In this document: positions 2,751-16,509 of the stretch, piece by piece
Numbering within the stretch: the stretch's first letter is position 1
Layout: each line of letters starts with the position of its first letter
Assembly: GCA_965205975.1 (NCBI GenBank)
Contig: OZ242195.1
Coordinates: 2,848,001 to 2,912,000, forward strand
Direction: 5' to 3'
DNA: 64,000 bases
DNA from: Candidatus Latescibacterota bacterium
GTDB taxonomy: Bacteria > Latescibacterota > UBA2968
The notes under the pieces: generated by a model
What the model was told of the DNA's origin: nothing
Database searches by the model: none
Seen by the model: only the letters and a program-made list of their open reading frames with translations
Made by a program: the position numbers and the translations under genes

Positions 2751-3647
2751 CTATACCTTCACCTTCAACGCACCCGGAACAACCTCAATCTTTGCGGGCA
2801 CCTCACACATCGGTTCTCCATCTGCAAAAATCCACAAAAGATCATCGGACTCAATCTGCAAAGTACTGGTCTGCACAACGCGCACAGCAGAATGACCAAT
2901 ATGAGCGCCGGAATACGCACGCAAAAACATCCTCAAAACCGTCCAGCGCGAAACATCTGCCACAATGCACACATCCAGCACCCCATCGTCAATAATGGCA
3001 TCAGGTACAATTTTAATCCCACTCCCATAAAAAGGCGCGTTTGCCGTTGCCGCCAGCAAAATACGCCCTTCAAAAACGCCAAAATCTCCTCGCAGACGCA
3101 CAAGGGAAGACCGATATCCGACCAGTGTTCGCAAAACTGTCAGCCCATAAGACACTTTTCCTCCCACCTCCAAAGCCCGTGTGAGAAAACCAGCCCTCTG
3201 ACTCCGCATCCTTTGCGCCACCGCCGTATCGAAACCCAAACTCGCAACAGTCGCAAAAAATCGGTCACCCGCTTTCCCCAGATCAATCGCGCGATCCACC
3301 CCATGCACCAGCGTATTGACCACATCCACCACATCTTTGGACAATCCCAATGCCCGCGCCAGATCATTCCCGCGACCACAGGGAATAACCCCCAAAATCG
3401 CATCTGAATTTACGAGACCATTGACCACCTCATGCACTGTCCCATCACCCCCACACGCAGCAACCTGGCGTGCCCCACGCGCCAACGCTTCCCGCGCTAA
3501 CCGCTCGCAATCGCCCGGTGCCCCCGACATCATCAAATCGGCATTTACACCGTGCTCGCACAACAAATCCGCAACCCGCTCACCTATGCGCCTTGCACGA
3601 CCACGTCCCGAAACGGGATTTGCAATAATTGTCCAATGATTTGACAT
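2751..3647 (-). CDS. Diacylglycerol/lipid kinase family protein (YegS/DgkB-like)
   Basis: ANPVSG, GGDGTVHEVVNG, PCGRGNDLA, ADGE motifs. Confidence 0.92.
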   Translation of the reverse strand: MSNHWTIIANPVSGRGRARRIGERVADLLCEHGVNADLMMSGAPGDCERLAREALARGARQVAACGGDGTVHEVVNGLVNSDAILGVIPCGRGNDLARALGLSKDVVDVVNTLVHGVDRAIDLGKAGDRFFATVASLGFDTAVAQRMRSQRAGFLTRALEVGGKVSYGLTVLRTLVGYRSSLVRLRGDFGVFEGRILLAATANAPFYGSGIKIVPDAIIDDGVLDVCIVADVSRWTVLRMFLRAYSGAHIGHSAVRVVQTSTLQIESDDLLWIFADGEPMCEVPAKIEVVPGALKVKV

Positions 3648-3732
3648 AAAGCTAATCACTCAAAAAGAAAACTCACCTCACAGTGAGATGAGTAGGATCG
3701 AACCCGATACAGACGGGAACGATTCTATCGAG

Positions 3733-3792
3733 CTTAGGGGGTAACTTAGGGGGTAACTTGGATGGTAACTTAGATGGTAACTTGGATGGTAA
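3733..3792. repeat. Five copies of a 12-bp tandem repeat
   Basis: (cttRgRKggtaa)x5 seen directly. Confidence 0.85.
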
Positions 3793-3866
3793 TTGCCAAC
3801 CGGGCATCCGCCTCAGATCGCACTTCTGGGTTTGGATGCAGGTCAGAATACGTCACGTTCTCTCCC

Positions 3867-4535
3867 TTAAATCCCGAACCTCTGTTTCAATCTTTGAATC
3901 CGATTAAAAGATTCGCAAATGCGATCTTCTCTAACAACGCCATCTGCTACCGCCTGTACAATAGCATTTTTAACATCGTACACCTGATCAATATTGTATT
4001 CCCCAATCTGGTTGGCGAGCAGAATCATATCAACACCTGCTTTTACGGCTTCAACAACCGCTTCTATCAACCCATACGCCTCAACAATCGCTCCCATTTG
4101 CATATCATCGGAAATAACGACCCCATCAAAGCCCATCTCATCCCTCAGGAGCTTTGTCATAATATCATGCGACAACGTCGCCGGTCTTCCGCTCTTATCG
4201 AGCTTCCGATTCACAATATGCGCGGTAAGAATCGGACCTTCATAGCCTCTCTGAATAAATTTTTGATACGGCAAAAGCTCTTTTGCACGTCGGTATGTCT
4301 CCGTGACATCGGTAACACCGAGATGCGTATCGTCCGCCGCACTTCCGTGTCCGGGAAAGTGTTTCAGCGTCGGTATCACCTGCTGTTCTCGATGCGCCTT
4401 AACAAACGCATTGGCATGCGCTACCACAGCCCTCGGAACATCGCTAAACGACCGCTCTATTGCGCCAACAGCAGGACTTTGGGGATCTATTCCCACGGCT
4501 TCTTCTACAGAAATTCCAAGATCACCAGGTGTCAC
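3867..4535 (-). pseudogene. nagZ: N-terminally truncated GH3 beta-N-acetylhexosaminidase (NagZ-like)
   Basis: ERSFS, KHFPGHG, DTH and SDDMQMGA are present. The N-terminal part including DQEGG is missing. A GTG start overlaps the SDR stop. Confidence 0.7.
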
Positions 4536-5344
4536 GCCACATCCCCCAAACCCTGCCCCCTCATCTTCCTCCTCACCAGCCACTCGACAATTTTGGGATG
4601 AATCAATTGCAGATAGGGCAATGCGCGGTGGTGCCAGGGAAGCACCAGTTCGCGCCTCTGCTTTCGCATAGCTTTCAAAATTGCCCTGCAACAATATTCT
4701 ACAGAAAGTGCCTCTTTATTGTGCCGCTGTGAGGAATCGCCCAGTGCTTCACCATCCTTCCCAAAAGCGCGTCGTCTCAAATTCGTCCCCTGAAGCCAAT
4801 GCGGCAAAACCGTCAAAACATGAACATCTTCCACTTCCAGACGCAGAGCATTTAAAAAACCCAGCACCGCGTGCTTTGATGCGCCATATCCCGTATGCAG
4901 AGGCACGCCAAATTTGCCCTGCAAAGATGCAATGGCCACAATCATACCCTTCGAAACTTTCAAATGTGGCAATGCCGCATGCACGCAATAAACCAGACCG
5001 AGATAATTGGTCTCCATCAGCTTGCGAAACACGTCCAGATCTTCCACCTCGTCAAACCGCGCCCACATACTAATCCCGGCATTGGCAATCAAATAATCAA
5101 TGCGACCAAATGCAGTAACCGTCGCCTCAATTAATTGTTCACAATCTTCGATCTTCGTAACATCTCCCACCACGGTCACCACCTGTGCGCCCAAATCCCG
5201 ACACTGCTCAGCCGTCTCGCTCAGCTTTTCCTCCCGCCGAGCAAACAATGTTAGGTGTGCGCCCTGTTTCGCCAGTTCCAGAGCCAACACAGCCCCAAGC
5301 CCCGAAGACGCGCCCGTAATAATCGCTACTTTATCGCAAAACAT
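4532..5344 (-). CDS. SDR oxidoreductase (DHRS7B-like; candidate acyl/alkyl-DHAP reductase)
   Basis: TGASSGLG, NAG, YGASK motifs; last gene of the lipid operon. Confidence 0.9.
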   Translation of the reverse strand: MFCDKVAIITGASSGLGAVLALELAKQGAHLTLFARREEKLSETAEQCRDLGAQVVTVVGDVTKIEDCEQLIEATVTAFGRIDYLIANAGISMWARFDEVEDLDVFRKLMETNYLGLVYCVHAALPHLKVSKGMIVAIASLQGKFGVPLHTGYGASKHAVLGFLNALRLEVEDVHVLTVLPHWLQGTNLRRRAFGKDGEALGDSSQRHNKEALSVEYCCRAILKAMRKQRRELVLPWHHRALPYLQLIHPKIVEWLVRRKMRGQGLGDVA

Positions 5345-5378
5345 TGCGCCGCTCAAAATCAATAGTTCCTTTCCATTT

Positions 5379-7211
5379 TCAATCCGCAAACGCCCCATTG
5401 CCAATGGCAAAGATATTATTTGGATCCATCGCCTTTTTCATCTGCCGCAGCACCGCAAGACTATTTTCGCTTTGAATCTGCGGCAAAAATCCACTGCGGA
5501 GCTTGCCCACGCCGTGATGGTGTGACAAAGACCCGCCGTGGTCTAAAATCTCCTGCCGCAACCGGCGCTCAATCGCGTGATAAACGCCAACCGCATCCTC
5601 AAGCCCCTGCGCACAAAAACCCATAGTAAAATAAATGCACACACCCGTGTGATAGGTCTGCGTCACGCGATAAGCCAAAAAGGGCTTGCCCGGCACGCTG
5701 TATTCTTCACACAAAACAACCAACTTCTTTTCCACCGCACCAATAACATCGTGAATATTAGTCCACGGCACAGAAGTCTCAAATGTCTCGCCCAAAATGT
5801 GAAACTGAGTAAAAAAATCGCGAATATACGCAATCCCAAACGTCAACATATACCCCCGCTCGCCTCTGTGCGCCCCGCCCGAAATACCGCCGTATTTCTT
5901 CGCCAAACGAAAAATCGTCTTTGCCTGCTGCCGAACCTCGTCTTTTGTTCCCTCCATCACAATCGTACACGCCACCAACTGCTTTGGATCAAACCCCTTG
6001 ACCTTAACCAAAAAAAATTGCTGAATATCCTGCTGGAGCTTCTTGAACCCTTTTGCCTCGGGCTTCAGCGCCTGCCCAAGCTGTAATTCCGTATTGTTCA
6101 CCAGCCGAATACTCGCCGGAACTTGCCCCGTTGGCCGAAGTGCTTTTAAGTAACTTACACCTCGTTCAAATGACGGAAACACCAGCGAACCAAACGCCTG
6201 TGCCTCGGGCTGTTTGTGGATCTTGATCGTCGCCCGGGTAATAATCCCCAAATTACCCTCACTCCCAAACAAAAATGACCTGGGCTGCACACCCGTTGAA
6301 TTGCGCGGCGTCGCATGGTGTGTCTCCACCTCCCCCGTTGGCGTTACCAGCGTGGCCTCTATCACAATATCCTCAATATTGCCATACCGATTCTTTTTCA
6401 TACCACTGGCATTGGTCGCAATCCATCCCCCCAGAGTTGAAAACTCCAGACTATCTGGATCGTGTCCCGATGTGTATCCCAACTCATTCAGCGCAATCTC
6501 CAATTGCTTACCCGAAATCCCTGATTGTACACACGCTTGAAAATTCTCTTCATCCACCTGCACAATGCGATTCATGCGACGCATATCCACCGACGCGACC
6601 ATCCGCGTCTCTGAAGTCGGAATTGCGAGCGCACCGCTCACATTCGTCCCGCCGCCATAGGGCACCAGCACCACATCGTGTTCATTTGCAAGCTGGATAA
6701 TAGCCTGAATATCCGCGTCTTCCTCTGGGAACAACACCACATCCACCAGGCGTTCGGGCGGCCGATGGTACAAAATTTGATACACCTCATCCACACTCAA
6801 CTGCCCGTGGCTATGTACCAGACGCTCTATGTCCTCTTGAGAAACGCCATTTTCGCTGAGCGCATCGCGCACCGCCCTCAAAAATTCGTCATTTGCCACG
6901 GGCGCGGGCAAATCGCGGTGCTCAACCTCTTGCCCCATATCTTCGGGACGGATCGGCACCTCGAGCACCTCTTCGACAAAAGGCAAAAAATAAGGCATCC
7001 GATAGCCACACAACGGATACCGCGTTCCCGTCACCTGCACAGTCCTGTCATCGTCAAACTCAAACCGCGTATCCTTATACCCCCACTTGTGTGCAAACCG
7101 CTCGCCTTCTGCCCCCTCAGAAAAACGGTCTTTACTGGCAAAAGCGCGACGCCCTCGAACGAGCAAAAATACCAGCACCAGCAAAAATGCGACAACCATC
7201 AGTTCATTCAT
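5379..7211 (-). CDS. Alkyl-dihydroxyacetone-phosphate synthase (AGPS-like FAD oxidoreductase) with N-terminal hydrophobic anchor
   Basis: WGYKDT, PYGGGTNV, GHDPDSLEFSTLGGWIATNASGMKKNRYGNIED, RVTQTY, SLSHHHGVGKLR; RBS gaggtg before MNELM. Confidence 0.9.
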   Translation of the reverse strand: MNELMVVAFLLVLVFLLVRGRRAFASKDRFSEGAEGERFAHKWGYKDTRFEFDDDRTVQVTGTRYPLCGYRMPYFLPFVEEVLEVPIRPEDMGQEVEHRDLPAPVANDEFLRAVRDALSENGVSQEDIERLVHSHGQLSVDEVYQILYHRPPERLVDVVLFPEEDADIQAIIQLANEHDVVLVPYGGGTNVSGALAIPTSETRMVASVDMRRMNRIVQVDEENFQACVQSGISGKQLEIALNELGYTSGHDPDSLEFSTLGGWIATNASGMKKNRYGNIEDIVIEATLVTPTGEVETHHATPRNSTGVQPRSFLFGSEGNLGIITRATIKIHKQPEAQAFGSLVFPSFERGVSYLKALRPTGQVPASIRLVNNTELQLGQALKPEAKGFKKLQQDIQQFFLVKVKGFDPKQLVACTIVMEGTKDEVRQQAKTIFRLAKKYGGISGGAHRGERGYMLTFGIAYIRDFFTQFHILGETFETSVPWTNIHDVIGAVEKKLVVLCEEYSVPGKPFLAYRVTQTYHTGVCIYFTMGFCAQGLEDAVGVYHAIERRLRQEILDHGGSLSHHHGVGKLRSGFLPQIQSENSLAVLRQMKKAMDPNNIFAIGNGAFAD

Positions 7212-7226
7212 TTCACACCTCAATTT

Positions 7227-9173
7227 TCAAGACTCTTCCGGATTCAACAACGTCGCAATATGCACCGCTTGAAACAGCGCAGCAGCCTCGGACTGAATCC
7301 GCAGCGATCGTCTTTTGGGCAACAGGGTCGTCTCTCCCAACATCGGCGGTGAGACCCACACATCGACCTGCCCCGGATTGATATTGATATTGCCCTTTGG
7401 ACACTTGGGCCACAGCGCGTGAAGCCCGCGATACGCAATCGGCACAATCACCACATCCTGGGGCAATTGTGCAAACACTCCGTGTTGAAGCGGAAATTGT
7501 TGAATCGCAAAAGCCGCCGTCGTCGCCATGGGATAAATAACACCCGGTCGCTCTGTCAATGCCTGTGCCACGCGCTGTGTCGTATGGCCCGCAGCACGGG
7601 ATCGCTCGAGCATCACATAGCCATCGACATTTTCCAAGATCTGATCAAAAACCTCCGACGTCATCCCAAACTGCGTGATCTGTTTCGACCCAATTTTGAT
7701 ACCCGAGCGCGCCAGCCCAGTACGCGCCAGAATCACACAAGGTTCGGGTCTTTCCCATCCCATTGCATTCATAAATTCTCGAGACTGCAAAACCCTGTAC
7801 AAAACGGGATGGTCAAATAAACTCTGATGCGTTGGCAAAAAAATAAGACGCCGACCTTCCGCATCGGCTCCCAAATCTCGCACAATGGCTTCAAAATGGG
7901 GATCGATATAAACGTTGACGCGAATATCAAAAATATCCAGCGTGCGACGCCCCCAATCGAGCCAGGTGCGCCATCCGGCTTCGCGGCGACGGATGGGATC
8001 GGCTTCTCTTTCCAACAATTTCTTTTTTTGACGTCCCACCTTGAACGAAGTCCCCATCCACCTGACAAAACGCATCCCTCGCTGCAACTTTGAAAATTGC
8101 CCCCGACGCCCGACATTGGGATATTCCAAAAATCGCCCGCGCGCCGTATCTGCGAGCAAAGTGGGCATTTCTATACGCGAGCCTTTTTGTCCAACGCGAT
8201 CGATTTGCGCGTTCAAATCGCATATTAGCTTAACCGACAAATCAATCATATCCCGCGTCAAATAACTATACTCCTGCCCATACCAATACAGCCGGGGACG
8301 CAATTTGGTAGGATCTTCTTGATGCGCATGCAAAAATTCAATCAACAGCGCCTTGATGTGCAACACATCATCATCTATCCCATCCATCTCCACATCACTC
8401 GCCTCGTGCAACTGCGCCAAAGCCACCTCAGCATCCACAATAACCTTCCACACCGATACGCCAAACCAGCCAAAATTTGTCAAATAATTATACCGCGTTG
8501 ACAGCAACCCCCCCGCGGCGATCAAATTGAGCGTGCGCTGTGCCACATCTTGCAACAAATCGCGCAAAGAGCCCTCAATTCTCTCGCCATCTCGTTCACA
8601 ACTGTACTCCTCAGCCCAGTGCGCGTCCTCATCCGCCTCCACATTGTCAAGAGCCTCTGCAACGGCGCGGGCATGCGACATCGGCACCTGTGTAATATGC
8701 ACCTGAGCCAGAGCCTCTTCAACGGCTTCGGGCGCGTGCAACTCCGCCTGTGCCAAAGCCTTCAAATACAGAGACTGATACAACTTCAAAAAATCTTTCG
8801 CATCCCCGCGTCCACGCTCGACAAATTGTCGTCGCAGTTGCAAATAAATTTGGCTGCCCGTGTGATATTGCGGAAGCAACCGCGCAAAAGGACGGTACGC
8901 CTCGTCCAAACGCTCATTGCGGACCTCGGGCAGGTCTCGAAAAATCGCATCCACAAGCTGAGCGCGAAATTGAAGTGCCTCCATATCCATCGCCCCACTC
9001 TTACTTTTGGGCCAGACCAGCGCATCTGGATCGAACGCGTCAAAATAGCCATCGTGACGCACGGCTTCGAGCATAAGCTGAACCGATTGGTCATAAATAG
9101 ACAACATCTGCTCCAGATCCTCGAGCAGTGTTTCGTGCAATGGGCGAGTATCCGATTTATTGCGTAAGGTCAT
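7227..9173 (-). CDS. Large protein with C-terminal PlsC/GPAT-type acyltransferase domain
   Basis: PTHQSLFD (HX4D) and VIVPIAYRG; N-terminal ~400 aa not recognised. Confidence 0.75.
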   Translation of the reverse strand: MTLRNKSDTRPLHETLLEDLEQMLSIYDQSVQLMLEAVRHDGYFDAFDPDALVWPKSKSGAMDMEALQFRAQLVDAIFRDLPEVRNERLDEAYRPFARLLPQYHTGSQIYLQLRRQFVERGRGDAKDFLKLYQSLYLKALAQAELHAPEAVEEALAQVHITQVPMSHARAVAEALDNVEADEDAHWAEEYSCERDGERIEGSLRDLLQDVAQRTLNLIAAGGLLSTRYNYLTNFGWFGVSVWKVIVDAEVALAQLHEASDVEMDGIDDDVLHIKALLIEFLHAHQEDPTKLRPRLYWYGQEYSYLTRDMIDLSVKLICDLNAQIDRVGQKGSRIEMPTLLADTARGRFLEYPNVGRRGQFSKLQRGMRFVRWMGTSFKVGRQKKKLLEREADPIRRREAGWRTWLDWGRRTLDIFDIRVNVYIDPHFEAIVRDLGADAEGRRLIFLPTHQSLFDHPVLYRVLQSREFMNAMGWERPEPCVILARTGLARSGIKIGSKQITQFGMTSEVFDQILENVDGYVMLERSRAAGHTTQRVAQALTERPGVIYPMATTAAFAIQQFPLQHGVFAQLPQDVVIVPIAYRGLHALWPKCPKGNININPGQVDVWVSPPMLGETTLLPKRRSLRIQSEAAALFQAVHIATLLNPEES

Positions 9174-9182
9174 AAGAGAAGC

Positions 9183-10787
9183 CTAAACACCTGTCTTGAG
9201 CACATGCCGTTGCAAGCCGGGAATATGAATATCTTTTACGTAAACGGGCCAATCTATGCGCGAAACATCACAATTAAAAATCTCTTTGTCTTCTGCATCC
9301 AGGCTGTCAAACAACCGATTCATATTGTCGTTTTGAAACACGCAATCCAGAGAAATATAAGAACCGTAAATATCGGTAAGTGCCAGCGTATTTTCCAAAG
9401 TGGCATTCAAAATCGATAATTGGCGTTTGCGTTTTGAGACATTGGCCATTGGCACCCAATCCAGTGCCCGTTGCAAAATTTTGAGTGGCAATAGATACTT
9501 ATAGCGCAACTTTCGACGAAATTGTGACAATGTCGGATAGGTCCACGGCGTCACCGCAATGGGTTTGCCATTGCGATCGCGCATTGGATTGTTCACAAAA
9601 TACTCGTACACATACTGGACGACCTCACCCACCGTGACCGGATTTTTTGCACTTGTCGTCACATGATAAACCTTCAAATCGGCATTTGCACGGATAGAAG
9701 GCAAAACACTGATAATAACATTGATAATAATATCCACGGGAATAACGTCTAAAACCGCTTCTGGACGCGCTGGAAAATCCGTCAAACGCCCCTTGCCGTA
9801 GTGTGCAATAAGCGGATCGGCCACTTTTAGCCCCTCCAGCCATCCCGGCTCTGGATCGGACAAACTGCTCTCAATAATAGAAGGGCGCACGATCACGGTT
9901 GGCAAATCGCCCCGGGTCTTGGCAATCATCTGCTCACCCATGGCTTTGGTAAAAGAATAACTGTCGTGCCAGCCCAACTCTCGCCCGCGCTTTATGCCGC
10001 GTGCCACCATCCGTTCCCGCACCCAGCGCTGGCGCAAGGCCTCCAACTGATGTTCTCGCCGATGTGCTGTAACGCGCTTGCCCCGGTCCTGCCGGTCCAG
10101 CAACCGCGTAAATTCCGCAAATCGCTCGGGACTCCGCGACGACGCCTCTACTTCGCGGCTATACGTTAGAATATCTTCAATTTCCGAATCCAGACTATAA
10201 TCGGGCGCGCGACCATTTCCCATCTGTTGTGCCACCGTTTGATCGGGCACGGGCGCGTCTTCAGAAATAATTCTCTTTTGCCGCCCATTGACATAAGCCG
10301 TTGAAACATGCACCAGCACAGCATCTCGACATGCTTTGGCAAATTCGACAACGCGCCTGGCTCCAAGTGTATTTTGCGCCAGGGCCAAATCCAGTGGCGC
10401 GTCAAAAACCACATTGGCCGCGCTATTTATCACAATATCAACTTCATGGATCAACCGCGCATATGTCTCCGCGTCCATGCCGAGATGATCTTGTGTCAAA
10501 TCGCTCGGCACTGCAATGACTTTTTCGCGCATCACAGAATCAAAACGATCCCCGAGTTCTGTGCGCAATCGCGTAAAGGCACTGGATTGCAAAATCTCCC
10601 TTTGCAATCGATCTTCGGCACTAATGGGCTTGCCCCCTCCTCGCCTTTGAGGTCGCACCATGAGATAAATGCGCCCAACATCTGGCGCATGGCAAAGGAT
10701 TTTTCCCACCAATCCCTTGGCCAAAAAACCAGTTGCACCTGTAACAAACAGAACCTTGTGATTCAAAAATGGAATAACGGCACTCAT
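9183..10787 (-). CDS. Alcohol-forming fatty acyl-CoA reductase (FAR, male-sterility family)
   Basis: TGATGFLAK, HVSTAYV, YSFTKAMGE, RPSIIES..EPGW, C-terminal FNCDVSRIDW..Y...IPGL. Confidence 0.92.
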   Translation of the reverse strand: MSAVIPFLNHKVLFVTGATGFLAKGLVGKILCHAPDVGRIYLMVRPQRRGGGKPISAEDRLQREILQSSAFTRLRTELGDRFDSVMREKVIAVPSDLTQDHLGMDAETYARLIHEVDIVINSAANVVFDAPLDLALAQNTLGARRVVEFAKACRDAVLVHVSTAYVNGRQKRIISEDAPVPDQTVAQQMGNGRAPDYSLDSEIEDILTYSREVEASSRSPERFAEFTRLLDRQDRGKRVTAHRREHQLEALRQRWVRERMVARGIKRGRELGWHDSYSFTKAMGEQMIAKTRGDLPTVIVRPSIIESSLSDPEPGWLEGLKVADPLIAHYGKGRLTDFPARPEAVLDVIPVDIIINVIISVLPSIRANADLKVYHVTTSAKNPVTVGEVVQYVYEYFVNNPMRDRNGKPIAVTPWTYPTLSQFRRKLRYKYLLPLKILQRALDWVPMANVSKRKRQLSILNATLENTLALTDIYGSYISLDCVFQNDNMNRLFDSLDAEDKEIFNCDVSRIDWPVYVKDIHIPGLQRHVLKTGV

Positions 10788-10847
10788 AAAAAGACCCCGG
10801 CATTTCCAAAAAAATTAAAACGCAACAGCACGAAAACCACCATCCCA

Positions 10848-10876
10848 ATTAAAGGCGACCATTAGACTTGTGTCAA
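10848..10876 (-). promoter_or_regulatory. Sigma70-type promoter for the FAR operon
   Basis: Minus strand TTGACA-N17-TTTAAT. Confidence 0.65.
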
Positions 10877-10924
10877 CCCCTTTCTCGCGCAGTTCACAAG
10901 CGCAAATCCTTATCAAAAATGGGG

Positions 10925-10953
10925 TTGACAAAAAAAAGCTCAACTCCTATCTT
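10925..10953 (+). promoter_or_regulatory. Sigma70-type promoter for the ndk/fab operon
   Basis: TTGACA-N17-TATCTT. Confidence 0.7.
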
Positions 10954-11002
10954 GTCCATCTTCGAGCCGATATGAGCCTATTTTCTTTATGGAATTTTAT
11001 GC

Positions 11003-11963: not shown

Positions 11964-12146
11964 ATGGCCAACCCCAAACGAAAAAGTTCAAATTCCCGCA
12001 CAGGTAAACGCCGTGCCAATTGGAAGCTGCGTCAACCCACTTTTAACGCCTGTCCCAACTGTGGGCAGCAAAAAATACCCCATCGGGTCTGTGGAAATTG
12101 CGGTTATTACAATGGACGCGAAGTGGTTGAAACCGATGGCTTTTAG
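11964..12146 (+). CDS. rpmF: 50S ribosomal protein L32 (zinc-ribbon type)
   Basis: MANPKRK, CPNC..PHRVCGNCGYY. Confidence 0.97.
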   Translation: MANPKRKSSNSRTGKRRANWKLRQPTFNACPNCGQQKIPHRVCGNCGYYNGREVVETDGF

Positions 12147-12190
12147 TTTGGTCTAACATCGCGCAGACTTTGAGGAGCAGAGTAATTATC

Positions 12191-13183
12191 ATGTACCCCC
12201 TTACAGCCACCATTACCGGGGTTGGGCACTATGTCCCAGAACAAAAGCTGACCAATACCGACCTCGAAAAAATGGTCGATACATCCGACGAGTGGATCAC
12301 ATCCCGCACTGGCATCAAAGAACGCCGCATTCTCGACGAGGGATTGGGCACATCTTTTATGGCTCTAAAATCTCTGGAATCCATTCTGCACAACAAAGGA
12401 CTCGATGCCAGAGATATCGATCTGATCATCGTTGCGACCATCACGCCCGACATGGTATTTCCATCAACGGCCTGTCTGGTACAGGACCAAATTGGTGCCA
12501 CAAATGCCTGGGCTTTTGATCTGGCGGCAGCCTGTAGCGGTTTTTTATATGCTCTGATGGTAGGGGGGCAATTTATTGAAACGGGCGCACACAAACGCGT
12601 AGTCGTCATCGGAGCCGACAAAATGAGCAGCATTACAGACTACGCCGATCGCGACACCTGTGTGCTCTTTGGCGATGGCGCGGGTGCCGTTTTACTCGAA
12701 TCAGGCGAGCCCGGTTTCGGGCTTAAAGACTTTATCCTCTATTCTGATGGCAGCGGCGTAAAATATCTGCGGCAACCCGCTGGCGGCAGTCTGCTTCCCG
12801 CCTCTCGTGAAACCGTTGAAAAAAAAATGCATTATATTTATCAAGATGGTCGCGAAGTTTTCAAATTTGCAGTCCCCAAAATGGCGGAAGTTTCCGCTCA
12901 AATTCTCGAACGAAACGGCCTTATCGGCAAAGACATCGCGCTTTTTGTGCCGCATCAGGCCAACAAACGCATCATTGACGCCTGTGTCAAACGTACAGAT
13001 ATACCCGAAGATCGCGTTGTGGTCAATATCGACCGCTATGCCAACACTTCGGCTGCCACCATTCCCCTTGGTCTATCTGAAGCAGCCGAACAGGGCCGTC
13101 TCAATCGCGGTGACAACGTGTTGCTCGCCAGTGCCGGTGCGGGATATACCTGGGGCAGCACCCTGCTAACCTGGGCTTATTAG
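12191..13183 (+). CDS. fabH: 3-oxoacyl-ACP synthase III
   Basis: DTSDEWITSRTGI, AACSGF, PHQAN, NTSAA. Confidence 0.97.
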   Translation: MYPLTATITGVGHYVPEQKLTNTDLEKMVDTSDEWITSRTGIKERRILDEGLGTSFMALKSLESILHNKGLDARDIDLIIVATITPDMVFPSTACLVQDQIGATNAWAFDLAAACSGFLYALMVGGQFIETGAHKRVVVIGADKMSSITDYADRDTCVLFGDGAGAVLLESGEPGFGLKDFILYSDGSGVKYLRQPAGGSLLPASRETVEKKMHYIYQDGREVFKFAVPKMAEVSAQILERNGLIGKDIALFVPHQANKRIIDACVKRTDIPEDRVVVNIDRYANTSAATIPLGLSEAAEQGRLNRGDNVLLASAGAGYTWGSTLLTWAY

Positions 13184-14116
13184 ATGGAAAAAAAAACTTT
13201 CCTATTTCCAGGACAAGGCTCCCAATTCGTTGGCATGGGATACGATCTGTATAGAAGCGCACCGGAAGCGCACCAAATTTTTGATCTTGCCGACGATGTG
13301 CTCGATATAGACATTAAGTCATTCTGCTTCAATGGTCCTGCCGAGTCACTCAAACAAACCGCAGTCACACAACCGGCAATTTTTGCCCACAGCATTGCCG
13401 CTCTTGAAGTAATTAAAAGCCGGGGACTGCACCCCGACCTCGTGGCAGGACACAGTGTTGGAGAACTCGCCGCGCTTGTTGCGGCGGGTGTTATGCGCGT
13501 CGAAGATGGCTTTCGAGTCGTCAGCGTTCGCGGACATGCCATGCAAGTCGCGGGAAAAATTCGGCCAGGTGCCATGGCAGCTGTGCTCGGTCTCGACGAC
13601 GACGTAATGATTCGGCTTTGCGACGACCTCAGTTCTTCGGGTCATGTCACAACAGCCAATTTCAATTGTCCGGGGCAAGTAGTCTTATCTGGCGAGGAAA
13701 ATGCCATTGACGAAGCACTTGAAAAAGCCAAAGCACTGGGAGCCAAACGCGCTGTGCTCTTGCCCGTAGGCGGCGCATTTCATTCGGCCCTGATGCAACC
13801 AGCCGTAACAGCACTGACCGATATACTCGAAGATGTGCCATTTGTGCGGGCGCAAATTCCCGTGATCCCCAATGTCACGGCTGAACCCACACGCGATCCA
13901 GACCTGCTCAAAGACCTGTTGATCAAGCAAGTTATTTCGCCTGTTCGATGGACAGAATCCATGCAACGGCTCATAGCAGAAGGCATGACCGAAGCCCTCG
14001 AAGTGGGACCAGGCAATGTGCTCAAGGGTCTCATGCGCCGAATCGACCGCAATATGTTAGTCCGCGAAGCCGGCACATTGGAAGCCATTGAACAACTGAA
14101 AGGCAGTAGTCAGTAG
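13184..14116 (+). CDS. fabD: Malonyl-CoA:ACP transacylase
   Basis: FPGQGSQ, GHSVGE, AFHS. Confidence 0.97.
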   Translation: MEKKTFLFPGQGSQFVGMGYDLYRSAPEAHQIFDLADDVLDIDIKSFCFNGPAESLKQTAVTQPAIFAHSIAALEVIKSRGLHPDLVAGHSVGELAALVAAGVMRVEDGFRVVSVRGHAMQVAGKIRPGAMAAVLGLDDDVMIRLCDDLSSSGHVTTANFNCPGQVVLSGEENAIDEALEKAKALGAKRAVLLPVGGAFHSALMQPAVTALTDILEDVPFVRAQIPVIPNVTAEPTRDPDLLKDLLIKQVISPVRWTESMQRLIAEGMTEALEVGPGNVLKGLMRRIDRNMLVREAGTLEAIEQLKGSSQ

Positions 14117-14177
14117 CCAGTAGCCAGTGACCCCGCACAGCCACCCTGGGTTGGGTGGTTGGGACTGACAACTGACA
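14105..14177. repeat. Intergenic element with inverted short tandem repeats
   Basis: agtagtcagtagccagtagccagt ... actgacaactgac. Confidence 0.55.
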
Positions 14178-14185
14178 ATCATCTC

Positions 14186-14932
14186 ATGAACCGACTCACA
14201 GATAAAACAGCTCTTATAACAGGTGGGTCTCGCGGTATTGGCGCGGCCATTGCCCTGCGCCTTGCGCGCGAAGGAGCCAACATCGCCGTATGTGCCAGCC
14301 AAAGCACGGAAGCTGCAGAAGTCGTGGCCAAAAAAATCCGCGAACAGGGCAGAGAGGCCATTGTACGACAAACCGATGTATCCAATGCCGAATCAGTTGA
14401 AGCCCTTGTAGAGACCGTCCTCGACACCTGGGGCAAAATTGATATACTCGTCAACAATGCGGGTATCACCCGCGACAATTTGCTGATGCGTATGAAAGAA
14501 GATCAGTGGGATGCTGTTCTTGACGTCAACCTCAAAGGTGCGTACCATTGTATCAAAGCCGTCACCCGTCCCATGATGAAGGCGCGAACCGGTCGTATCA
14601 TCAACGTCTCATCGGTCGTCGGACTCACGGGCAATGCAGGGCAGATCAATTACGCCGCATCCAAATCGGGCCTTATTGGCCTGACCAAATCGGTAGCCAG
14701 AGAATTAGCCAGCCGCAATATTACGGCCAACGCCATTGCGCCCGGATTTATCCCAACTGACATGACCGCCAAACTCAACCCTAAAATACAAGAACAGTTG
14801 ATCGCACAGATTCCACTGGGCAAACTCGGTAGCCCCGACGATGTCGCTGCTGCCACAGCCTTTCTCGCCTCTGACGACGCTGCTTATATTACTGGACAGG
14901 TTCTCGTTGTCGATGGCGGAATGGTGATGTAA
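14186..14932 (+). CDS. fabG: 3-oxoacyl-ACP reductase
   Basis: TGGSRGIG, NNAGITRDNL, YAASK. Confidence 0.97.
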   Translation: MNRLTDKTALITGGSRGIGAAIALRLAREGANIAVCASQSTEAAEVVAKKIREQGREAIVRQTDVSNAESVEALVETVLDTWGKIDILVNNAGITRDNLLMRMKEDQWDAVLDVNLKGAYHCIKAVTRPMMKARTGRIINVSSVVGLTGNAGQINYAASKSGLIGLTKSVARELASRNITANAIAPGFIPTDMTAKLNPKIQEQLIAQIPLGKLGSPDDVAAATAFLASDDAAYITGQVLVVDGGMVM

Positions 14933-14966
14933 ATAATCACTACACACTACACACGGAGGGCTTCAC

Positions 14967-15206
14967 ATGACCGATGATATTCAACAAAAAGTTACCGACC
15001 TGATCGTTGACCAACTCGGGGTCGATGCCGATAGCGTCAATGCCGACGCCCATTTTATTGACGATCTGGGCGCAGACTCACTCGACACAGTCGAACTGGT
15101 CATGGCTTTCGAAGAAGAATTTGACATGGAAATCTCAGATGAAGACGCTGAAAAGCTCGAAACAGTTGGCGATGCCATTGCATACTTAGACGAACGTCTG
15201 GATTAA
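14967..15206 (+). CDS. acpP: Acyl carrier protein
   Basis: [14 protein letters not shown]. Confidence 0.98.
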
Positions 15207-15214
15207 TTCGGAAA

Positions 15215-15247
15215 CTGAAGACTGGAAACCCTATCTCCAGCCTTCAG
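15215..15247 (+). other. Intergenic hairpin between acpP and fabF
   Basis: ctgaagactgga ... tccagccttcag. Confidence 0.5.
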
Positions 15248-15258
15248 GAGGTCATTCT

Positions 15259-16509
15259 TTGAACAAACAACGCAGAGTGGTCATCACCGGCATGGGCACA
15301 CTTGCTCCCAATGGCAATACCACACAAAGCTATTGGGAAGCACTGTGCAATGGACAAACAGGTGTTGGCCCCATAACAAAATTTGACGCCACCGATTTCC
15401 GCGTGCAATTTGCTGCCGAAATCAAAAACTTTGATCCAGAACACTTTGGCATTGATCGTCGCAGCCAGCGTCGTATGGACCTCTTTACCCAATACGCCAT
15501 AGCATCATCTGTTCAAGCCGTGGGAAACGCGGGGCTCGACATCTGCAATGAACAGGCCGAACGCATCGGGGTTGTATTTGGCTCGGGCATTGGCGGCATC
15601 CAAACCTTTGAAGATCAGCACGAAGCCTATCGCAAAGATGGTCCAAGACGCATCAGTCCGCTTTTTGTGCCCATGATGATCCCTGACATGTCCGCAGGTC
15701 AAGTGTCCATCCACCTTGGTGCCAAAGGTCCCAATTATACCACCGTCACAGCTTGCGCCTCGGCAGCCCATGCCATTGGCAATGCAGCCCGCGAAATTTG
15801 GGACGACGAAGCCGATATCATGATCACAGGGGGGGCAGAAGCCGCCATTACACCGATGTCAGTCGGTGGATTTGCCTCAGCGCGAACGCTTTCAACCCGC
15901 AACGACGCCCCAACGCAAGCCAGTCGCCCCTTTGACGCAGACCGAGATGGGTTTGTAATTGGAGAAGGTGCCGGTGGGCTTGTTCTGGAAGAACTCGAAC
16001 ACGCAACACAACGAGGCGCCACTATTTATGCCGAAGTGGTAGGAGCCGGTTACACGGGTGATGCCTATCACATTACCGGTATGGCCCCTGGCGGTGAGGG
16101 GGGTGCCCGCGCCATGTGCCGCGCCATGCGACAGGCGCAGATCAATCCCGAAGACGTGTCTTACATCAACGCACACGGCACATCAACACCCGTGGGTGAC
16201 CCGGCAGAAACAGCTGCCATCAAATCCGTATTTGGCGACTATGCCAAAAAGCTCGCCGTCAGTTCGACAAAATCTATGACTGGCCATCTTTTGGGAGCTT
16301 CGGGTGCGATTGAAACTATCGCGGCAACCCTATCAGTTCATCACAATGTGGTGCCGCCCACGATCAACTATGAAACACCCGATCCAGAATGCGATCTCGA
16401 TTACGTGCCCAACGAAGCGCGAGAAATACCCGTTGAAATAGCCATCAGCAACTCCTTCGGCTTCGGTGGTCACAACGCAGTCCTCATCCTGCGTAAGTTT
16501 CGCAACTAA
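15259..16509 (+). CDS. fabF: 3-oxoacyl-ACP synthase II
   Basis: TACAS, NAHGTST, KSMTGHLLGA, NSFGFGG. Confidence 0.97.
   Translation: MNKQRRVVITGMGTLAPNGNTTQSYWEALCNGQTGVGPITKFDATDFRVQFAAEIKNFDPEHFGIDRRSQRRMDLFTQYAIASSVQAVGNAGLDICNEQAERIGVVFGSGIGGIQTFEDQHEAYRKDGPRRISPLFVPMMIPDMSAGQVSIHLGAKGPNYTTVTACASAAHAIGNAAREIWDDEADIMITGGAEAAITPMSVGGFASARTLSTRNDAPTQASRPFDADRDGFVIGEGAGGLVLEELEHATQRGATIYAEVVGAGYTGDAYHITGMAPGGEGGARAMCRAMRQAQINPEDVSYINAHGTSTPVGDPAETAAIKSVFGDYAKKLAVSSTKSMTGHLLGASGAIETIAATLSVHHNVVPPTINYETPDPECDLDYVPNEAREIPVEIAISNSFGFGGHNAVLILRKFRN

Follow-up and report, generated by a model that had tools for sequence, protein, structure and literature searches.

The window analysed here is a 64,000-nt stretch of a Candidatus Latescibacterota genome (GenBank assembly GCA_965205975.1, contig OZ242195.1, positions 2,848,001 to 2,912,000 of the forward strand), and its subject is a four-gene operon on the minus strand at window positions 4532-10787. 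The four genes are best read as an alkyl-dihydroxyacetone phosphate (alkyl-DHAP) ether-lipid pathway. The operon probably provides an acyl-DHAP/alkyl-DHAP route, in which its second gene, ORF2, would add the first acyl chain to DHAP and replace PlsX/PlsY, which were not found in the genome carrying the window (G000). Textbook bacterial phospholipid synthesis starts when glycerol-3-phosphate is acylated by PlsB, PlsX/PlsY or chlamydial PlsE. If ORF2 acylates DHAP, bacteria would have one more means of beginning their membranes, one that channels lipids towards ethers. New are the acyltransferase, which belongs to an orphan family, the almost complete lack of PlsX, PlsY and GpsA across the class, and an either-or relation with a LarA-like module. 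The alkyl-DHAP synthase (AGPS), the stand-alone enzymes and the probable alkyl-DHAP route of the initial annotation are supported; the absence of PlsX, PlsY and GpsA in the class was overlooked.

Genomes and operon layout

G000 consists of one contig of 5.56 Mb (completeness 98.3%) and carries each of the four operon genes in single copy. "Class" denotes 132 genomes (G000 and families f1 to f4) of the same class or closer, probably the Latescibacterota class UBA2968; "outside" denotes the other 36 genomes of the phylum. The 132 class genomes are kin, so they are not independent.

As initially annotated, the operon comprises four tightly spaced, co-directional genes. All are separate minus-strand ORFs: a stand-alone fatty acyl reductase (FAR) of the ElbD lineage, predicted to make fatty alcohol (9183-10787, 534 aa); ORF2, the predicted sn-1 (DHAP) acyltransferase (7227-9173, 648 aa); AGPS with an N-terminal hydrophobic anchor (5379-7223, 614 aa); and a classical short-chain dehydrogenase/reductase (SDR), the predicted acyl/alkyl-DHAP reductase (4532-5344, 270 aa; full ORF 4532-5410). 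FAR and ORF2 are spaced by 9 nt, ORF2 and AGPS by 3 nt. For the SDR, the ATG at 5344 is the probable start codon, 34 nt past the AGPS stop, because close relatives align from residue 1 of the 270-aa form.

Contigs from sponge RNA libraries of one study, derived from related strains (~96% alike), span FAR and ORF2 unbroken (7229-10831 in X1, 7229-10814 in X2), and one X5 contig bridges ORF2 and AGPS. Such contigs denote presence in RNA libraries and say nothing on a single transcript or on levels; small shares were recorded in 15 of 18 RNA rows.

An orphan acyltransferase family

ORF2 had no match in NCBIfam or among PDB sequences, and Pfam gave only NBD_C below cut-off. Neither PF01553 nor GPAT_C, the profile tests for the GNPAT/PlsB family, matched. 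Searched with a profile of 108 ORF2 homologs, a set of 1.84 billion representatives yielded 65 proteins, of which 7 are near full length. Named homologs are from Candidatus Latescibacteria and Handelsmanbacteria, and close matches were labelled Gemmatimonadetes by their submitters.

The AlphaFold (AF2) model of ORF2 (pLDDT 88.7, pTM 0.92) was used for fold comparison. In this predicted model, residues 361-645 (7239-8093, minus strand) superimpose on Thermotoga maritima PlsC (5kym) with Z 15.0 and rmsd 3.3 over 222 aligned residues. The same domain gave Z 9.3 to human GPAT1 and Z 8.5 to squash GPAT; Foldseek also supported a fold of the GPAT/PlsC superfamily (E 6.8e-5). It contains an HQSLFD motif at residue 449, with H449 and D/E454 each conserved in 108/108 rows (catalytic H449-x4-D454), and is preceded by two basic amphipathic helices, as judged from helix moments. 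With small profiles, hhalign placed the ORF2 profile nearer to ElbD-type acyltransferase domains (88.5%, E 2.8e-6) than to those of FARAT, the FAR-GNPAT fusion (54%, E 1.3e-4); myxobacterial FARATs match PF01553 and do not match GPAT_C. The ORF2 tree agrees with the families, at five changes, the minimum.

Residues 1-350 (8124-9173, minus strand) form a helical domain with 51 columns conserved at ≥95%, many of them polar. Its conserved polar cluster comprises R227, N229, N233, H284, E286, Y298, Y302, T306-R307-D308 and D311. The domain had no Foldseek match at E≤0.001 and no match in the Atlas. The best VIA match, a designed helical filament at Z 9.6, was rejected as below a meaningful level for helical bundles. 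These fold searches establish neither a new fold nor a function.

ORF2 thus represents an orphan family with a PlsC/GPAT fold behind an N-terminal helical domain, which was missed by Pfam and by a 2026 GNPAT survey. Its fold and HxxxxD dyad agree with the acyltransferase of the initial annotation, in which the orphan status of the family went unnoticed. ORF2 is predicted with good confidence to be an sn-1 acyltransferase. Genomic context alone makes DHAP its likely acyl acceptor.

Phylum-wide distribution of phospholipid-start genes

ORF2 was found, in single copy, in 130/132 class genomes and in 2/36 outside. FAR follows with 128/132 and 3/36, AGPS with 125/132 and 1/36. The SDR was found in 119/132 class genomes and in none of the 36 outside (threshold E≤1e-60, at most 15 candidates scored per genome); genomes without the native AGPS lack it too.

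The genes of the usual start show the opposite distribution. PlsY was detected in 0/132 class genomes vs 29/36 outside, GpsA likewise in 0/132 vs 29/36, and PlsX above cut-off in 1/132 (G145) vs 33/36, with sub-cut-off matches in three more class genomes. PlsB-type GPAT_C was found in 0/168 genomes. The Escherichia coli positive control matched in all four scans (PlsY, PlsX, GpsA, GPAT_C). For PF01210, matches were weak and partial in G021 and G027, and G000 had none. In the outside genome G048, ORF2 is present and PlsX, PlsY and GpsA were not found. The G145 plsX (G145:C8:68072-69016; locus GC 63%) lies on a separate 154-kb contig. Both this gene and the operon of the outside genome G074 (G074:C112) are on small contigs, and binning contamination or recent transfer is possible.

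Only two acyltransferases of the PlsC/GPAT fold turned up in G000, namely ORF2 and a single PlsC. The latter, encoded between cmk and rpsA, is the sole PF01553 gene of the genome; G021, G027 and G048 have one PF01553 match each. PF09989 (Ger/PlsA-type) was not found in G000 and matched in one of five genomes (G048). PF13685, which gave weak and unspecific matches only, was discarded. CdsA and CDP-alcohol transferases are present in 5/5 genomes tested.

GlpK was found in 69/132 class genomes, including G000 and 31/31 of the window's family, and was not found in 63/132; GlpD and GlpA were not found in 5/5 genomes tested. Genomes in which GpsA, GlpK, GlpD and GlpA are all missing are therefore without an identified source of glycerol-3-phosphate. 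Phosphatidylglycerol requires glycerol-3-phosphate, yet both GpsA and GlpK are missing from 63/132 class genomes. In G000, two genes before recA (G000:C1:570227-571370) are presumably pgsA-like and pgpA-like, as judged from their sequences.

A keto-reductase candidate accompanies ORF2 in most class genomes: the SDR in 119/132, a Zn-dehydrogenase in six AGPS-less genomes and, in G078 and G151, another SDR that adjoins a replaced AGPS. The remaining five, without such a candidate, are drafts of 270-770 contigs.

LpxC (PF03331) was found in 0/132 class genomes vs 36/36 outside, and lipid A synthesis appears to have been lost in the same class.

Identity of AGPS, FAR and SDR

AGPS consists of FAD_binding_4 and FAD-oxidase_C domains (PF01565 and PF02913). 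The closest solved structure is guinea-pig AGPS (4bby; E 1.9e-150, 505.7 bits), followed by Dictyostelium AGPS (296.3 bits), while glycolate oxidase and D-lactate dehydrogenase reach 86.5 bits (~1e-23). In the alignment, R373, R468 and Y531 correspond to R352, R447 and Y508 of Dictyostelium AGPS, with a chain-numbering offset of 3 that fits all of them; the latter residues are named as catalytic (PMC3509576). Trees were computed with FastTree and IQ-TREE from 81 rows, including 7 eukaryote rows, 6 of them vertebrate. All 75 AGPS form one clade (SH-aLRT 98) apart from 6 long-branch oxidase outgroups. An assignment to GlcD or D-lactate dehydrogenase is ruled out by the solved-structure scores and the tree. 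Structure match, tree and catalytic residues confirm the annotated AGPS against a D-lactate/glycolate oxidase, and the FAD enzyme is almost certainly an alkyl-DHAP synthase, as predicted from sequence.

The window AGPS belongs to a 24-row bacterial clade (support 100). A separate 44-row clade holds AGPS of Myxococcota, Acidobacteriota, Gemmatimonadota and Spirochaetota (98), and the eukaryotes stand apart from both; the base of the tree is poorly resolved among the three groups. The motifs by which the initial annotation had placed this AGPS very close to the eukaryotic enzyme were all found, yet the closeness did not hold. The scored positions are invariant in 12/12 aligned AGPS, bacterial and eukaryotic, and the motifs are therefore those of the family. 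An acidobacterial AGPS also scores higher against the guinea-pig enzyme than the window AGPS (564 vs 505.7 bits), and the trees gave no special link of the window AGPS to eukaryotic AGPS. Its C-terminal part is 48-50% identical to vertebrate AGPS. The annotated N-terminal hydrophobic anchor is real and clade-specific, being present in 14/20 Latescibacterota AGPS vs 0/65 other bacterial AGPS scored.

Further AGPS fusions (P0320, P0321 (G109-like), P0326, P0327, P0372, P0390, P0406) carry PF05721 (PhyH-type) in some Latescibacterota and a PF01553 acyltransferase in other bacteria. P0318 was considered as an ORF2-AGPS fusion and left unused: its ORF2 similarity ends at residue 567, it occurs on one contig, and a frameshift artefact is probable.

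FAR contains PF07993 (E 2.5e-64) and PF03015, with fatty acyl-CoA reductase 7eoz as best solved match (E 2.5e-91). It falls among ElbD FAR domains, outside the FARAT clade (26-row clade, support 100, FastTree). The predicted product of this very probable fatty acyl reductase is fatty alcohol.

The SDR scored 303.9 bits against NCBIfam PRK06181 (cut-off 215 bits) and carries the TGxxxGxG and YxxxK motifs of classical SDRs. Clavaldehyde dehydrogenase and 11-beta-HSD1 were the best solved matches. In other bacteria, six AGPS-SDR fusion proteins were found. With the SDR parts of these the window SDR shares 33-41% identity, and against each of the six it scores above the window FabG. It is quite probably the predicted acyl/alkyl-DHAP reductase. 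Known reductases of this step are Ayr1 and Dhrs7b (PMC13256971).

Gene order in relatives and the either-or with a LarA-like module

Genomes of f1 and f2 as a rule have the order FAR-ORF2-AGPS-SDR. By coordinates, FAR adjoins ORF2 in 56/56 genomes of f1 to f3, and ORF2 and AGPS lie ≤2 kb apart in 49/53 of f1 and f2. At least 564 AGPS relatives were found in GTDB genomes; ORF2 was not found at any of the 80 AGPS loci examined from other phyla, the best 80 (loci, not genomes) of these at least 564.

The AGPS match is missing in seven class genomes. Among these is G013, a draft of 430 contigs in which the contig carrying ORF2 stops at that gene. The remaining six (G077, G079, G149, G150, G152, G153) contain a LarA-like gene (PF09861, E≤1e-40), as do G048 and G071, that is 8/168 genomes, all AGPS-less. 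None of the 126 AGPS-bearing genomes contains it. The gene belongs to a module of HAD, Zn-dehydrogenase and LarA-like genes, often followed by a lipid kinase (L023:2531-7162 in G077, L022:13071-16669 in G048, L062:11857-16415 in G071, and L210-L213). Swaps were seen within genera: G078 has ACS-FAR-ORF2-AGPS-SDR-HAD and G079 has ACS-FAR-ORF2-HAD-ZnADH-LarA-like. The AGPS of G078 and G151 belong to the acidobacterial clade.

The module is a candidate non-orthologous replacement of AGPS and SDR. The either-or of AGPS-SDR and the module suggests that what ORF2 makes always requires further processing, as acyl-DHAP would, by one or other of two unrelated modules. It also supplies candidates for unknown steps of elb-type synthesis, most of which are described as uncharacterised (PMC9131029). 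The idea of the LarA-like protein as a dedicated ether synthase was weakened by 28 metagenome loci with ≥7 kb upstream, of which 5 had FAR, 3 ORF2 and 10 the Zn-dehydrogenase.

In f4, 54 of 72 FAR matches lie in frames >1000 aa. An ElbD layout, FAR-AMP-binding-acyltransferase, was seen in the scanned f4 genomes G128 and G153 and, outside the class, in G071. ElbD seems cut down to its FAR domain in G098, G106, G109 and 15 more f4 genomes (18/72 FAR matches in short frames; 3 loci checked). In f4, lgt and an FMN oxidoreductase come after the ElbD or solo FAR, which faces lipid kinase-mlaD-mlaE (L063:4885-7094, L065:6435-8673, L067:1381-3581, L069:7527-9784); this arrangement connects the alcohol/ether genes with the lipidation of lipoproteins and with lipid transport.

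Proposed pathway and alternatives

In the proposed pathway, acyl-ACP from the divergent fab cluster would be the likely donor, because the operon is without an acyl-CoA synthetase. ORF2 would put the first fatty acyl on DHAP, and FAR would convert acyl chains to fatty alcohol. The membrane-anchored AGPS would then exchange acyl for alkyl to give alkyl-DHAP, and the SDR would reduce acyl- or alkyl-DHAP to 1-acyl- or 1-alkyl-glycerol-3-phosphate. The single PlsC of the cmk-plsC-rpsA locus would add the sn-2 chain, and CdsA with the CDP-alcohol transferases would complete the lipid. Expected products are 1-O-alkyl-2-acyl (plasmanyl) phospholipids, with diacyl lipids from whatever bypasses AGPS. 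Acyl-DHAP is the substrate of AGPS (PMC3509576), and a DHAP acyltransferase is therefore needed. ORF2 likely starts all glycerolipids in these cells.

A number of points weigh against this reading. The pathway is read here from genes, families, folds, residues, gene order and presence or absence alone. More than half of ORF2 is without assigned function. The glutamate of motif III is missing, position 549 being M in 55, A in 45, V in 4 and T in 3 rows; we take this motif (FPEGTR-type) to be shared by PlsC and GNPAT, and the glutamate is present in the ElbD/PlsC alignment rows. Since the 132 genomes are kin, the loss of PlsX, PlsY and GpsA probably counts as one ancestral replacement and not as 132. 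G145 holds PlsX; G074, outside the class, holds the operon (on a 7-kb contig with a partial SDR copy) together with PlsX, PlsY and GpsA; and G071, also outside, is without PlsX, PlsY, GpsA and ORF2 but has ElbD. The operon is split in f4 (76 genomes), where ORF2 stood alone and AGPS-SDR elsewhere in 8/8 fetched locus pairs. The ElbD-like proteins of G128 and G153 have their own acyltransferase domain and are a second first-step candidate there. The AGPS route is minor in Myxococcus xanthus (PMC9131029). G000 has GlpK and a pgsA-like gene; glycerol-3-phosphate can therefore exist in these cells, and ORF2 could use it.

In one alternative, ORF2 acylates glycerol-3-phosphate, as a functional counterpart of chlamydial PlsE or of PlsB, or takes both acceptors, with ether lipids as a minor side branch. 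Its fold is common to plastid GPAT and GPAT1, PlsE is a precedent for a first acyltransferase other than PlsB or PlsY that works with acyl-ACP (PMC6167442), the whole of the window's family (31/31) has GlpK, and ORF2 is retained in genomes without AGPS. We consider it unlikely all the same: GpsA was not found in the class nor GlpK in 63/132 of its genomes, AGPS needs acyl-DHAP, for which no other candidate was found in G000, and a dehydrogenase is still in the same cluster of AGPS-less genomes. Rather less probable is an accessory role, with bulk phospholipid begun by another unrecognised enzyme or by PlsC acting twice. Another enzyme might escape profiles that missed ORF2, in M. xanthus the AGPS operon has an accessory role, and the f4 operon is dispersed; against this, ORF2 acts like a core gene, near-complementary to PlsX/PlsY across the phylum, and the operon faces a fab cluster that lost plsX. 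Production of wax esters by FAR and ORF2, or recycling of ether lipids of the sponge host, is very improbable. FAR-ORF2 is indeed the tightest-linked pair, related strains occur in sponge libraries and a lipid kinase lies downstream, but AGPS and SDR would be left unexplained, salvage needs no FAR, the genome has kept its fab genes, PlsC and CdsA, and the ORF2 fold is that of PlsC/GPAT, unlike the wax synthase fold.

A bolder extension of the acyl-DHAP/alkyl-DHAP route is offered tentatively and is more doubtful than the route itself. The whole class (no PlsX/PlsY/PlsB/GpsA, no LpxC) may have rebuilt its envelope, making all glycerolipids from DHAP via the new acyltransferase family, mostly as 1-O-alkyl ethers, and may be the source of much sponge monoalkyl glycerol ether. 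The HAD/Zn-dehydrogenase/LarA-like module, which replaces AGPS and SDR in sister lineages and stands behind ElbD elsewhere, would then be an AGPS-independent route from acyl-DHAP to (ether) lipid.

Comparison with known systems and surveys

The myxobacterial elb cluster consists of ElbD (FAR-ACS-ACP-acyltransferase) and ElbB (HAD). The initial annotation gave it as the myxobacterial route; M. xanthus also has an AGPS operon, MXAN_1676-1675-1674 (PMC13012113, PMC9131029), both operons being described in the former. The route itself is therefore known. That operon encodes AGPS, a FARAT and an NAD-dependent epimerase/dehydratase. As in the window, AGPS is joined in an operon by FAR and acyltransferase functions for alkyl-DHAP. 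In the window, unlike in M. xanthus, separate genes encode FAR and the acyltransferase, the former being ElbD-type and the latter only remotely FARAT-related, AGPS belongs to another clade and the last gene is a classical SDR. With the animal peroxisomal pathway (FAR1, GNPAT, AGPS, DHRS7B) the operon shares the same four predicted reactions, whereas ORF2 is no GNPAT by profile, the donor is probably acyl-ACP, and the route seems to replace, not accompany, the glycerol-3-phosphate route. In function the operon would resemble both the AGPS operon of M. xanthus and the peroxisomal route; by composition it belongs to neither. The CarF/PEDS1 desaturase (PF10520) was found in 0/5 genomes, in a scan that no control genome matched.

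The proposed distinctness from elb stands in part. ElbD, HAD and LarA-like homologs were not found in G000, and the ether bond is assigned to AGPS; ElbD is present in f4 relatives and G071. On the other side, FAR is of the same lineage as in elb, ORF2 is nearer to the ElbD acyltransferase profile, and relatives have FAR-ORF2 in elb-like ACS-FAR-ORF2-HAD clusters. Like chlamydial PlsE and plastid GPAT, ORF2 is a lineage-specific GPAT-fold acyltransferase that would start phospholipids without PlsB or PlsX/PlsY. PlsE, in contrast, takes glycerol-3-phosphate to ester lipids, and ORF2 has an extra 350-residue domain and no sequence match to it.

A 2026 PNAS survey counted the complete set of four plasmalogen enzymes in 73 bacterial genomes and found that AGPS gave too little phylogenetic signal (PMC13012113). 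Its tables contain 39 FAR rows and 32 AGPS rows for class UBA2968, with none in the GNPAT table, so that bacteria having the ether route are undercounted. Contig DJHM01000033.1 is present in these tables only as gene 110 (FAR) and gene 108 (AGPS) (PMC13012113); gene 109 is presumably ORF2. A preprint reported monoalkyl glycerol ethers (C14-C18) from sponges, and matches to agps, elbD and ger in sponge Latescibacterota metagenome-assembled genomes; its main text, through its conclusion, mentions neither plsX nor a racemase (bioRxiv 10.64898/2026.06.23.733905). The class genomes are candidate producers of sponge alkyl ethers. A literature search, thin on subscription papers, returned no paper about the operon, about ORF2 or about the loss across the class.

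Neighbouring genes and minor features

A divergent intergenic region (10788-11002) separates the operon from an ndk-fab cluster. The RNA-library contigs end at 10831/10814 and resume at 10986/11024, which is a weak hint from one study. A promoter/terminator scan (15 vs 9.0±3.3 and 12 vs 10.0±3.6 expected) was not informative. On the plus strand, rpmF and fabH (11964-13183) lie 23 nt apart with the usual plsX slot empty, and the cluster continues as fabH-fabD-fabG-acpP-fabF (12170-16509). The names rpmF, fabH, fabD, fabG, acpP and fabF are our assumption, read from the sequences. The fab cluster is likewise divergent from the operon in G080, G029, G021, G026, G001, G089, G081 and G016. The rpmF-fabH gap (8-230 nt) holds no plsX in the window or in 9/9 further class loci, while plsX sits between the two genes in 8/8 genomes of other classes.

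Downstream, a lipid kinase of the YegS/DAG-kinase family (2751-3659, minus strand; PF00781 and PF19279) is probably an accessory of the operon system. It lies directly 3' of the SDR in G080, G089 and G081 and is present in elb-like clusters too. A glycoside hydrolase family 3 (GH3) ORF (3867-4694, minus strand) covers profile positions 130-316 only, overlaps the SDR end and seems N-terminally truncated; near 4490, in the region of this ORF, related strains carry 388-443 extra bases. A short tandem repeat (3771-3820, minus strand) of about five copies of a 12-13 nt unit with AAGTTACC lies in the gap that separates the GH3 ORF from the lipid kinase.

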